From the IMG/VR virus record IMGVR_UViG_2713896788_000013: a stretch of DNA of 10,130 nucleotides. One strand, 5' to 3'. Numbering within the stretch: position 1 is the stretch's first letter; each line of letters begins with the position of its first letter. The stretch comes from a virus (Duplodnaviria; Heunggongvirae; Uroviricota; Caudoviricetes). Positions 3,001 to 6,000 of the stretch are shown here, piece after piece. The position numbers were made by a program.

Positions 3001-6000
3001 ATGGATTTGCCCCACTCTCCGAAATCAGCGCAACAAACTCAGCCAGGTCCGGGGGCCACGTTTCACCCGCCCGGCAGCGGTCCATGCACTGACGGCACAC
3101 CAGACGGATTTGCTGTTCAGTCATCGCACCAATCTGGGCAATCCAGAGCTTCGAAGGTGCGGCCCCGTTCTTCTGAGTCCAGCGGTTCGAATACACCTCC
3201 CCCATGAGCTCCCACAGCTTCCAGGCCGTTTCCGTTGCTGATAAATCCGTTGTCACGTTCCCACTGTTCGCGTGCAGCCCGGATTTCCTGAACTGCCCGT
3301 GATGCCGTGCCACCTGATGCTGCATGGCTTCCCCCCTTGCTGACTGGTTTTACCTGTGCCCTGACGTGCTGCACGTGGCGGGCAAATTTCTGCTCCCACT
3401 GAACCTGCGTGAAAACCTTCCCCTCCGCCATCCAGTAATCCCGGAATGCGGCAAGCTCAGCAGGTGTAAATTCCGGCTCAGGCAGAGCCATACCCCACAC
3501 TGCTGCCCGTTGTCGAAAATCCGGCGACGGCTGCCAGACAGTAGTCATCGAAAATTTCCCGATCGGTTCGCTCAGGCCGTCCAGGTATTCAGGTTCGGCT
3601 GTCTGCAACGGCGCACCATTCGACTCACTGGTCGGAATACTCTCGCGCGCGTTATGTGTGGGGTTTAATTCTGTATCTGTATCTTTATCTGTATCTTTAT
3701 CTGTCGTGACTTGTCGTGACAGATGCGTGACACGTCGTGACTCATCGTGACAATCAGCATTATGTTTCCGCAGCTTTTCCCGCTCCCGCTGCGCTCTCTT
3801 GCGCTCTGCCGGGGATTTTGCCGTTTGCGAAACGTTACCATTGTCCTCTTTCAGCACCTGACGTTTTTCCCATCCGGAAATAAGGTCACCATCCAGAACC
3901 CGCCCCTGCATTGCATGCAAAATTGAATCAATTACGTCTTCCGTCACATCAAGCGCACTTGCTAAATCTTCCGTCGTGACATCAATGTGACCACGTAGTG
4001 ACACGCCGTGACATGTCGTGACATTTCGTGACGCGCTCACCAGAAGATGGATATACACTGCCATCACTGTTGCGATTGGCTGTCCTGATACCCTGGCAAT
4101 CGTTCGCCACTTGGGGTCATTTGGCATGTCATGCCACAATCTGAGCCAGGCATTAGCCATACTCACCTCTTCTGATACCGAACTTTACCCTCGAACATCC
4201 GGAAGAAATCCGGCATGAATATTGTTGGTCAATNNNNNNNNNNNNNNNNNNNNNNNNNNNNNNNNNNNNNNNNNNNNNNNNNNNNNNNNNNNNNNNNNNN
4301 NNNNNNNNNGGCCACCAGCAGAGGCGGCATTGCCTTTTCGATCGCCGGTAACAGAGCCTGCATTTTTTCAACTGCATCAGGGGTGTCTTTCTCTATCCAG
4401 CGGAAAATTTTCTGGGTATTGCGAGCCAGGGCTTCCGGATGGCTGTCGTCGTACAGTTCAGGAAACGTCATACCCAACTCAAAATAAGCCTGGGTTATTC
4501 CAGCTGCCGGAACTTTTTCGCCATCAGGACGCGCCCAGGCATTCATCGCCATGCGGATGTGTTCATGCTTGATTTTCATGAATCCCCCCTTGGTTAGAAG
4601 GCGGATTATGATCAGAATCGGGAATGACAACCGTCGGTATGTGTAACTCATATTTGAGCGCCCCGGCAGTGACTGCCTGAATTAGCAACGCCCATTTCCA
4701 CGGAACGTCTTCCCCCCACATGCTGACTGTGGTTTTTGACGTTCCTAGAGCGGCGGCTGTTTTAACAACTCCGCCAAAATAGCCTAATACTTCTGATTTT
4801 TTCATGAGTCGCTCCATAAAACTGAACGCCAAAAGTTTAATAATCAAAACCAAAGAAAGTCAAGAAACAAAACCATCTGTGTTTTAAAATCAAAACATGA
4901 ACAAGCAAACAATATCTGAACGCATAACCCAACGTATGCATGCGCTAAACTTGAAAGGCAAAGACCTTGTCAATGCCACTGGCGCATCAAAAGGCTCCGT
5001 AAGTCAATGGATGAACGGTGGAGGAGCGCCGTCCTCGCGTTACATAAGTTCACTGGCAAAGATATTGAAAGTAAACGAAAATTGGCTTCTTAATGGAGGA
5101 GAGTTAAATACAGGTGATTCGCTTGATCTATCTTTACCGCCGATAAAAACGGTTCCGCTACTATCACTTCAGCAGGCAGCAAGCTGGAGTGATTATATGA
5201 AAAATTCCTCAATAACCTCTTGTGTGCAGCTTGTCGGAGAAATCCCGGCCAATACCTTTGCTGTTGTTCTAGAGAGTGACAGTATGTCGACATCTGGTGG
5301 TGGAGTTTCCATCCCAAATGGTTCAACAGTTTTTGTTGATCCCGATCGAATCGTACAACCAGGAAATATTGTCCTTGCCTTACCCAAAGGGACCACAACG
5401 CCTGTCATTCGCAAACTGGAGATAGAAGGGCCGGATATTCTTTTAGTCCCCACGAATCCTCGCTACCCTTCAATTATGCTGGATGATCTATCTTGCATAT
5501 TGGGAGTATGCTTTAAAATTCAACAAGATATTTAACCAACCTCATCTATTTGATTAACTGTATGCCATCGTAGTGATGGCGTAACAGCTGCCTGCTTAAA
5601 ATGTTTTGATAAAAAAACATTGACCTTAAATGTTCGTTTTTCTAAACTTCATTCATTCCCTCACCCCGCCCCACAGAATGCAGGGCAATACTTCGAGTTA
5701 CCAGGCAGTGGTCAGGGGTTAAGTAGCCAGCCCGAGGCGTAAGAACATGACGGCAGGGTTCAACTTTAATAACTATGCAGCAGGTTTTTGTTCCGCTACC
5801 CCGGCGTTAAGGGGAAATGAGGTCAACATGGATACGCTCAATCTTGGCAACAACGAATCTCTGGTATGTGGCGTGTTCCCCAACCAGGACGGTACGTTCA
5901 CCGCGATGACGTATACCAAAAGCAAAACGTTTAAAACTGAAGCTGGCGCGCGTCGCTGGTTAGCCAGAAACACTGACTGATGAGGTTGACGATGGAATTT

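Follow-up and report, generated by a model that had tools for sequence, protein, structure and literature searches.

How is a prophage repressor gene expressed when its start codon is not preceded by a Shine-Dalgarno sequence, and which sites control the promoters around it? This question is raised by a divergent cro/cI-like gene pair within a 10,130-nt stretch of DNA from a Caudoviricetes virus (IMG/VR record IMGVR_UViG_2713896788_000013), which was analysed as a whole and is called here the window. The explanation that we consider quite probable is that the region 4806-4896 constitutes the OR region of a lambdoid prophage immunity switch, in which the repressor is most likely synthesized from a leaderless transcript. 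The features on which this explanation is based are collected in Table 1.

Table 1. Features of the immunity region, with positions in the window
Feature	Position	Strand	Description
ydaT-like gene (CII analogue)	4153..4579	minus	Pfam YdaT_toxin; RefSeq 141-aa CDS
cro-like gene	4563..4805	minus	80 aa, P22_Cro family; Pfam PF14549 E=1e-15; RefSeq same coordinates
YdaT (CII-analogue) operator-like site	4569..4586		TTGATTTTCATGAATCCC; cro/ydaT junction; 2 mismatches to TTGATT-N6-AATCAA
Shine-Dalgarno GGAG of cro	4815..4812	minus	6 nt before ATG 4805; direct reading
PR-like promoter	4834..4863	minus	-35 TTGACT (4863..4858), 18-nt spacer, -10 TAAACT (4839..4834)
Operator site 1 (OR1-like), putative	4835..4850		GTTTAATAATCAAAAC; spans PR spacer and -10
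Middle operator (OR2-like), candidate	4858..4873		GTTTTGTTTCTTGACT (minus strand); one half conserved only
PRM, candidate	4862..4890	plus	weak -35 AAGAAA (4862-4867), 17-nt spacer, -10 TAAAAT (4885-4890)
Operator site 2 (OR3-like), putative	4881..4896		GTTTTAAAATCAAAAC; -16 to -1 relative to cI ATG
cI-like repressor gene	4897..5535	plus	212 aa; N-terminal HTH (434/P22 C2 type) and C-terminal S24 peptidase domain
OL-like operator, distal, putative	5603..5618		GTTTTGATAAAAAAAC; third exact GTTT-N8-AAAC in window
PL-like promoter	5620..5648	plus	TTGACC, 17-nt spacer, TAAACT
OL-like operator, proximal, putative	5632..5647		GTTCGTTTTTCTAAAC; AAAC arm within PL -10, as at PR

Organization of the locus

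The cro-like and cI-like genes diverge from a 91-bp spacer, whose length, already given in the initial annotation, was obtained again by direct reading. The assignment of the locus to cro/cI immunity switches was also borne out, and the P22_Cro, S24, and HTH matches in Pfam and structure searches place it in the lambdoid type. The description of the switch as compact is, in turn, probably wrong, because 91 bp is not unusual when compared with 97 bp in CP-933P and about 100 bp between cI and cro of λ. The divergent pair with its short spacer is followed, on the cro side, by the cII analogue and replication genes (DnaT-like O and P), and the RefSeq layout is the same. A search of Rfam gave no RNA family within the spacer 4806-4896.

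The Cro-like protein matches the P22 Cro structure (1rzs; E=3e-8) over residues 1-53. Its ATG (4805..4803, minus strand) is preceded by a GGAG motif; in 10 spacer variants this motif does not change, whereas the 6-nt gap between it and the ATG does. Among sigma-70 matches in the window, the PR-like promoter ranks second, with a score of 11.44; this score and the other promoter scores reported here come from our own approximate sigma-70 matrix. Its transcript would start near 4827, and the promoter would drive cro, ydaT, and the replication genes. The YdaT-like protein matches PDB entries 8bt1 and 3c4r (E about 1e-55), with residues 1-90 nearly identical; an apparent truncation of its gene was rejected as an artefact of a masked N-run at 4234-4309. 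The YdaT binding site was described as TTGATT-N6-AATCAA (PMC9986795), and the CP-933P counterpart of the site found at the cro/ydaT junction is a perfect repeat in the same place. The junction site is presumed to serve PRE-type establishment control, and a YdaT-dependent PRE-type promoter near it would probably supply a leadered repressor transcript for establishment.

The repressor and its start codon

The repressor was recognized by matches to the Pfam S24 family (E=8e-13) and the λ repressor structure 3bdn (E=5e-10); the Pfam HTH_3 match was under the gathering score (21.5 vs. 23 bits). As judged by an in-frame stop codon (TAA, 4885-4887) 12 nt upstream of ATG 4897, the alignment of residues 1-69 of P22 C2 (1adr) to residues 1-69 of the repressor, and exclusively synonymous changes in codons 3-13 among relatives (9 synonymous, 0 nonsynonymous), ATG 4897 is the true start of the gene. 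Public annotations place it elsewhere. The RefSeq CDS comprises the C-terminal 113 aa, from residue 101, by which the whole DNA-binding domain is lost, and one phage record begins the protein at residue 14. The lack of a Shine-Dalgarno sequence in front of the gene explains why the N-terminus is truncated in these annotations.

The short RefSeq CDS could also be taken as a sign that the repressor gene is a decayed remnant and the switch an inactive fossil in a defective prophage, the more so as recE is truncated and the integrase gene frameshifted in the E. coli O157:H7 copy, where the locus is identical. This possibility is scarcely credible. The 212-codon ORF is intact with its N-terminus under purifying selection, variants of 83-89% identity retain both the full-length repressor and the 91-bp spacer, and 1042 of 5426 complete E. 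coli genomes (about a fifth) carry the segment, as do three deposited phage records. Relatives of the repressor form a narrow group of 12 clusters with identities of 73% or more; when species-representative genomes were scanned for others, the only matches were irrelevant S24 fragments of Mycobacterium and Alicyclobacillus. The catalytic residues S129 and K173, both invariant, align with S149 and K192 of λ repressor. At the position of the scissile bond, where Ala-Gly or Cys-Gly would be expected, the protein has QAA (A94-A95) aligned with QAG (A111-G112) of λ, and QAA is the same in every relative covering this position.

Putative operators in the spacer

The two related 16-bp dyads that had been proposed in the spacer were found at 4835-4850 and 4881-4896; they are 88% identical, 46 bp apart, and share the motif GTTT-N8-AAAC. 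Their symmetry is modest and concerns the outer arms of 4-5 bp, with 4/8 and 6/8 complementary pairs at the two full sites. The overlap of site 1 with the -10 of the cro-side promoter was likewise recovered in a consensus scan, with 5 bp shared. In the window, the degenerate 16-mer (up to 3 mismatches) has 4 matches compared with 0.55 expected, and the exact GTTT-N8-AAAC motif has 3 compared with 0.28; none of 200 shuffles reached 4 or 3, respectively. All 10 spacer variants are exactly 91 bp long, and among them site 1 has no variable position and site 2 has one, 4892. Variable positions account for 1/48 in the three operator blocks vs. 17/43 outside (Fisher p=6e-6) and, when the comparison is restricted to 4835-4896, for 1/48 vs. 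5/14 (p=0.0016).

The third of these blocks, 4858-4873, makes the earlier count of only two operators probably an undercount, as it is half-conserved, lies in 23-bp phase with the full sites, and is invariant among relatives. Minus-strand copies of GTTTTG at 4850, 4873, and 4896 are phased by exactly 23 bp, and the chance of CAAAAC in the register of the middle site, calculated from spacer composition, is about 0.002. However, the block coincides in part with the -35 hexamers of PR and the putative PRM, which alone could account for its invariance, and only 1/8 of its pairs are complementary. OR would thus be composed of two full sites and a half-conserved one between them, over the overlapping -35 regions.

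The similarity of recognition helices indicates which proteins might bind there. When the N-terminal part of the repressor was compared with Cro by BLASTP, nothing aligned; the helices of the repressor and Cro, GASKGSVSQW and GTSKTTVSMW, read directly in a register taken from structure alignments, share the pattern SK..VS.W. Both proteins may therefore recognize the same GTTT-N8-AAAC operators. Occupation of the PR-side sites by the repressor would switch cro off, and occupation of the ATG-adjacent site by Cro or excess repressor would switch repressor synthesis off; both the binding and this order of occupancy are predicted from the arrangement of sites.

The A/T-rich motifs might instead be promoter-associated elements (UP-like tracts) or half-sites of another factor, e.g., YdaT. 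The YdaT half-site AATCAA is indeed present in both full OR sites, the YdaT pattern matches 4836-4853 with 3 mismatches, and confinement of the symmetry to short arms would agree with such an origin. Nevertheless, AATCAA has no TTGATT partner at N6 spacing, matches to the pattern in the window are at chance level (6 vs. 8.2 expected), and PR, PRM, and PL of CP-933P are unaffected by YdaT. The common helix of the repressor and Cro also argues against this proposal, as do the OL centres GATAAA and TTTTTCT, which lack AATCAA yet keep the GTTT/AAAC arms, and we regard it as very improbable. The interpretation of the spacer sites as OR/OL-type operators is preferred because the window has just three exact copies of the motif, the last of them beside the PL-like promoter. 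That the repeated dyads behave like operators is supported by their preservation among relatives while the flanks vary, and by the recurrence of the motif at that promoter.

Several other candidates are not counted here. The sequence GTTTTGAT at 7510 lies within dicB and has no second arm, and was rejected as chance. No operator is claimed at 6266, where the degenerate 16-mer matches with 3 mismatches, and the small repeats D2, D3, I1, and I2 were set aside as chance or by-products of A/T-rich operators.

The second early promoter

The PL-like promoter is the best sigma-70 match in the window (12.21, approximate matrix). PL and PR are thus the two best matches, and in both the -10 TAAACT is fused to an AAAC arm. 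The operator motif recurs at this second early promoter, the OL-like sites flanking TTGACC-17-TAAACT and lying 29 bp from each other, vs. the 23-bp phasing in OR. The distal site ends 1 nt before the PL -35 and is conserved across about 40 sequence variants, whereas the neighbouring promoter spacer varies; the proximal site reads GTTTGTTTTTCTAAAC in variant L087, with perfect arms. The leftward operon beyond the promoter contains DicF RNA and dicB. The two putative sites would bracket a promoter reading into this operon, and the repressor probably keeps the cell-division inhibitor and the regulatory small RNA silent.

The repressor transcript

The absence of a Shine-Dalgarno sequence before ATG 4897, on which the proposal of a leaderless mRNA was based, was evident also here, since there is just one G among the 17 preceding nt (TGTTTTAAAATCAAAAC). 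The position of TAAAAT agreed as well, as this hexamer ends 6 nt before the ATG. The candidate PRM would start transcription at A4897. Its total score is 8.06, a value reached about once per 420 nt of the window and not significant alone, but among plus-strand hexamers of 4740-4960, the segment scanned, TAAAAT has the best -10 score (6.65). No pairing is predicted for the first 25 nt of the repressor ORF. In λ, the cI mRNA transcribed from PRM is leaderless. The debatable issue is that AAGAAA-17-TAAAAT ties with AATAAT (4839-4844) and TTTAAT (4836-4841), from which leaders of 46-49 nt would arise, and for this reason a leaderless PRM transcript is plausible rather than proven, although we hold it to be reasonably likely.

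The ties lead to the proposal that leadered mRNAs without a Shine-Dalgarno sequence are the main source of the repressor, TAAAAT being only operator sequence. Such transcripts would start from AATAAT/TTTAAT near 4848-4851, from TTAACA-18-AATACT inside cro near 4798, or from a YdaT-activated PRE-type promoter, and initiation at ATG 4897 would proceed via an A/U-rich unstructured leader. The alternative promoters equal or beat the TAAAAT candidate (8.06, 7.91, and 9.37 vs. 8.06), a YdaT-type site is available at 4569-4586, and in Rac two of the three racR promoters are leadered (PMC9638921). On the other hand, TAAAAT is placed to start transcription at the A of the ATG, and its arrangement matches cases shown experimentally in λ, CP-933P, and Rac. 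The AATAAT hexamer is contained in operator site 1 and set back-to-back against the strong PR -10; it would therefore be occluded by PR RNA polymerase and repressor. We consider the leadered proposal rather unlikely as the main route, and the two routes are not mutually exclusive. A search of the literature for transcription-start data from O157 found no usable genome-wide table. The preferred reading is that the maintenance transcript most likely starts at A4897 from a weak promoter and would be translated as a leaderless mRNA. If so, the middle site, centred at -31.5, overlaps the PRM -35, and λ-style activation of PRM would not be expected.

Comparison with known switches

As in λ, a repressor with HTH and S24 domains diverges from cro, the same operator motif is reused at PL, and phased operators lie over both promoters (23 bp here, 23-24 bp in λ) at similar positions relative to PR (-15.5 and -38.5 vs. 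about -17 and -41); in both, no Shine-Dalgarno sequence precedes the repressor ATG, and a -10 is positioned for a start at its A. Unlike in λ, the DNA-binding domain is nearer to 434 repressor and P22 C2 than to cI, Cro is of P22 type, the operators are 16-bp GTTT-N8-AAAC with only half of the middle site, two OL sites rather than three are evident, the CII analogue is YdaT, and the position of cleavage is Ala-Ala instead of Ala-Gly. Because all sites are about 10.5 bp nearer to the repressor start, the middle one overlaps the PRM -35, while OR2 of λ is at -42; the -35 hexamers of PR and PRM also overlap each other. In its N-terminal domain the repressor can be aligned with 434 repressor and P22 C2 (E about 1e-4), although identity is only about 30%. 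The operators of 434 are ACAA-N6-TTGT; like them, the sites described here have conserved 4-bp outer arms and a variable A/T-rich centre, but arm sequence and spacing (N8) differ from 434/P22. With Qin dicA/dicC the locus shares a P22-Cro-type DicC-like protein and a leftward operon with DicF RNA and dicB, whereas its 212-aa S24-containing cI-type repressor differs from the short DicA type of Qin.

The PaaR2/YdaS/YdaT switch of CP-933P (Sakai Sp12) in E. coli O157:H7 (PMC8630535, PMC9986795) comes from the same host and prophage family and lies about 46 kb away in strain TR01; it was located with an 82-nt query, a 31-nt primer-derived query giving no match. There, paaR2 was shown to be leaderless by a 5' RACE start at the ATG and by sequencing of the protein N-terminus, inverted repeats that are full and half by turns were footprinted in the 97-bp spacer, and OL sites were found at PL (PMC8630535). 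Similarities include the full/half/full pattern in a spacer of 91 bp here, the alternation of well-conserved and half-conserved inverted repeats, which begin with GTTTA in CP-933P, a PL whose -35 and -10 are the same as those of PR in CP-933P, accompanied by OL sites, and YdaT, which is almost the same in its N-terminal domain and has its operator where cro meets ydaT. In contrast, PaaR2, the first protein of a toxin-antitoxin operon, is devoid of an S24 domain, the repeats there are 18 bp with a spacing of about 19-20 bp, and the PRM -10 is downstream of the nearest repeat rather than inside it. BLASTP of the repressor and Cro against their CP-933P counterparts gave no alignment for either. 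The immunity type is thus distinct from that of CP-933P, as the repressor and Cro are unrelated at this level of comparison, the operators differ, and only YdaT is shared. In Rac, the strongest of three racR promoters gives a leaderless transcript, and nine monomer sites were proposed (PMC9638921). The divergent repressor/Cro-like pair followed by ydaT and the multiple repressor sites in the spacer resemble this system, but RacR is a different, small HTH protein.

Implications for lambdoid immunity

The PR -35 (4858-4863) and PRM -35 (4862-4867) hexamers overlap, and, considered together with the repressor sequence, this would allow a departure from the logic of λ. With the middle site at -31.5 of PRM, the repressor would make no sigma contact there, and its only means of autostimulation may be to remove the competition of PR polymerase; given the conserved Ala-Ala in place of Ala-Gly, SOS cleavage may be slow or absent. 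The joint reading, in which overlapping -35s, relief-only autostimulation, and slow or no SOS cleavage combine into a non-inducible lock on dicF/dicB, is improbable. If true, about one E. coli genome in five, that of O157:H7 among them, would carry a largely non-inducible lock on these genes.

The literature search found no functional work on this immunity type and no paper citing its RefSeq protein accessions. The switch is a further example of a known design, that of λ, CP-933P, and Rac, and its mechanism is not new. It adds one more case to the pattern of leaderless repressor genes in lambdoid switches and opens no new question; its practical use is that placing the repressor start at 4897 corrects the truncated public annotations.

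Immunity genes and prophage context

The window comes from a lambdoid E. coli prophage, of which it is the early region (see table). The cro-cI segment (4400-5600) shows 100% identity to several O157:H7 chromosomes, and a search of 5426 complete E. coli genomes located it in 1042 (coverage >=80%); among deposited phage records it is present in three only. For the 212-aa repressor, matches were obtained to lambda repressor in its full-length form (E=5e-10) and, at E about 1e-4, to the DNA-binding domains of both 434 repressor and P22 C2. Two runs of N are masked, 4234-4309 (76 nt) and 7168-7217 (50 nt), and since the first interrupts ydaT (the CII-analogue gene), its truncation or frameshift in ORF lists was rejected as an artefact. 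In the O157:H7 prophage, RefSeq marks a truncated recE and a frameshifted, partial integrase, next to which lie IS elements (window 7936-9713; 9472-11244 in the fetched locus L002); the window shows the integrase only as a fragment of 183 aa. The prophage in O157:H7 looks defective; the immunity region is intact despite this.

Features of the immunity region and its surroundings (window positions)
Feature	Position	Strand	Sequence or basis
cro-like gene, 80 aa	4563-4805	-	P22_Cro family, Pfam E=1e-15; P22 Cro structure E=3e-8
ydaT-type gene	start 4579	-	residues 1-90 ~identical to crystallised CP-933P YdaT
DnaT-like O gene and P gene		-	Pfam search
Site 1, OR1-like	4835-4850		GTTTAATAATCAAAAC
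Site 2, OR3-like	4881-4896		GTTTTAAAATCAAAAC
cI-like repressor ORF, 212 aa	4897-5535	+	S24 peptidase domain, N-terminal helix-turn-helix
OL-like site, distal	5603-5618		GTTTTGATAAAAAAAC; third exact motif copy, just downstream of repressor gene
OL-like site, proximal	5632-5647		GTTCGTTTTTCTAAAC; weaker copy, covers PL -10
DicF small RNA	7244-7295	+	Rfam, 75 bits
dicB ORF	7470-7658	+	RefSeq annotation

Predicted operators of the cro/cI spacer

The gap between the two genes (4806-4896) is 91 bp, as described in the initial annotation, and the two related 16-bp sites proposed within it were recovered, 88% identical and 46 bp apart. Their symmetry lies in the outer 4-5 bp arms, with complementary pairs at 4/8 (site 1) and 6/8 (site 2). 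The window holds three exact copies of GTTT-N8-AAAC where 0.28 are expected (0/200 shuffles reach three), and four of the degenerate motif, with <=3 mismatches allowed, where 0.55 are expected. The suggested overlap of site 1 with the -10 of the cro-side promoter PR (TTGACT-18-TAAACT, 4863..4834) was also found. The GTTT-N8-AAAC sites are predicted operators, on which three independent lines agree: copies at PL, conservation, and the helices of the two proteins.

Between the distal OL-like site and the -35 of a PL-like promoter (TTGACC-17-TAAACT) there is a single nucleotide; the proximal site lies over the -10 of this promoter, with the register that site 1 has on the PR -10, and a divergent relative has both of its arms perfect (GTTTGTTTTTCTAAAC). 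PL and PR are the top two sigma-70 matches in the whole window (12.21 and 11.44, own approximate matrix). For conservation, 90 fetched loci were compared; they yielded 10 distinct spacer variants, some of them from relatives with a repressor of only 83-89% identity. All 10 spacers are exactly 91 bp long, and variable positions number 1/48 within three 16-bp blocks (the two sites and a middle block, 4858-4873) versus 17/43 outside (Fisher p=6e-6), or, within 4835-4896, 1/48 versus 5/14 across both 7-bp linkers (p=0.0016), these p-values being indicative only because the variants are related sequences. The turn-plus-recognition-helix segments, read directly from the proteins in the register of the P22 C2 and P22 Cro alignments, are alike (GASKGSVSQW in the repressor, GTSKTTVSMW in Cro), as would be expected for a cI/Cro pair with common operators.

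The claim that only two operators are present is probably an undercount, as a phased, invariant candidate half-site lies in the middle, at 4858-4873. On the minus strand the spacer reads CAT / GTTTTGATTTTAAAAC / ACAGATG / GTTTTGTTTCTTGACT / TTCTTTG / GTTTTGATTATTAAAC / T. Counting both strands, the window has just nine copies of GTTTTG; three of them, at 4896, 4873, and 4850, follow an exact 23-bp phasing and a fourth belongs to an OL site. The chance of CAAAAC at the exact middle register, calculated from spacer composition, is about 0.002. The middle block does not vary in any relative, but its likeness to the motif is confined to one half (complementary pairs 1/8), the other half being the PR -35, and its invariance could be explained by the PR and PRM -35 hexamers alone. 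In prophage CP-933P of O157:H7, footprints showed inverted repeats of two kinds in alternation, those over PRM and PR being well conserved and the others keeping one half only (PMC8630535), a pattern that the spacer shares. Based on phasing, invariance, and this pattern, the spacer would hold two full sites and one half-site. A candidate fourth phased half-site, GTTCAGTTTTATGGAG on the minus strand (4812-4827; GTTCAG), lies 23 bp away from site 1, over the leader of cro and its Shine-Dalgarno sequence; it is possible, and weakly supported because relatives differ at two of its positions.

A hairpin, GCCATC-GTAGT-GATGGC (5564-5580), lies 29 nt past the stop codon of the repressor gene. Across about 40 sequence variants its stem does not change, in contrast to its 5-nt loop (GTGGT, GTGCT, GTGAT, ATATT, ACAGT). 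No T-run follows it; it may mark the 3' end of a transcript or act in processing. DicF RNA and dicB, whose product we take to be DicB, lie downstream of the PL-like promoter, so the repressor probably controls a dicF-dicB operon, as in Qin.

Repressor start and transcript

At variance with the ATG 4897 of the initial annotation, RefSeq places the repressor start at 5197, giving 113 aa without the DNA-binding domain (in O157:H7 named 'LexA family protein'), and phage record ON470612 places it at 4936, i.e., Met14. An in-frame TAA is located at 4885-4887, with no start codons between it and 4897. Residues 1-69 align with P22 C2 residues 1-69, and residues 6-67 with 434 repressor residues 2-62; therefore, helix 1 is encoded upstream of Met14. 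Codons 3-13 show nine different synonymous substitutions among relatives and no nonsynonymous ones (codon 2 is N, S, or T), which points to the full 212-aa form as the translated one. The evidence favours 4897 as the start.

The initial annotation, accurate in description and mostly right in interpretation, proposed a leaderless mRNA. Upstream of ATG 4897 nothing resembles a Shine-Dalgarno sequence (one G in 17 nt), and TAAAAT (4885-4890) does end 6 nt before it, a placement from which transcription would begin at the A of AUG; ORF nucleotides 1-25 are predicted to be unpaired. For lambda cI, the leaderless arrangement was experimentally demonstrated. It was also shown for CP-933P paaR2 by 5' RACE, N-terminal sequencing, and mass spectrometry (PMC8630535), and the strongest of three promoters of Rac racR is the leaderless one (PMC9638921). 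However, the PRM candidate AAGAAA-17-TAAAAT scores 8.06, reached about once per 420 nt of the window; within the spacer AATAAT (4839-4844, predicted start near 4851) ties with it and TTTAAT (4836-4841, near 4848) nearly does, and a further candidate lies inside cro (start near 4798). We consider a leaderless maintenance transcript rather likely; leadered transcripts probably exist too, including from a YdaT-dependent PRE-type promoter.

Comparison with other immunity systems

Relative to PR (start inferred near 4827), site centres are at about -15.5, -38.5, and -61.5, similar to the lambda positions. Counted from a start at 4897 the centres are -8.5, -31.5, and -54.5, whereas in lambda the PRM-relative centres are -19, -42, and -66, so the sites are one helical turn closer to the repressor start. 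As a result, the -35 hexamers of PR (4858-4863) and PRM (4862-4867) run into each other, and the middle site extends over the PRM -35; activation by contact, as in lambda, would therefore not be expected. Relief of promoter competition has reportedly been described for phage 434, and positive autoregulation by this route seems more likely. At the position of the lambda Ala111-Gly112 cleavage bond, the repressor has Ala-Ala (codons 94-95, 5176-5181; QAASW versus QAGMF), unchanged in every relative covering these codons. Catalytic Ser129 and Lys173 are present by alignment, and the Ala-Ala may alter SOS inducibility.

The CP-933P region was recovered via primer sequences from the paper's supplement. 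BLASTP showed no similarity between its repressor and Cro and those of the window, and its repeats are 18 bp, spaced about 19-20 bp, versus 16 bp with 23-bp phasing; the window thus carries a distinct immunity type of the same, known architecture. The two have only the ydaT module in common. Where this module gives way to the immunity-specific cro module, the boundary splits the YdaT operator (4569-4586), which is TTGATTCATGAAAATCAA in CP-933P, a perfect TTGATT-N6-AATCAA, and GGGATTCATGAAAATCAA in the window, with 2 mismatches at the outer bases of a single arm.

The repressor is cut short in public annotations. The switch is a well-formed, conserved one of the lambdoid OR/OL type, and its immunity type is uncharacterised yet common in E. 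coli.
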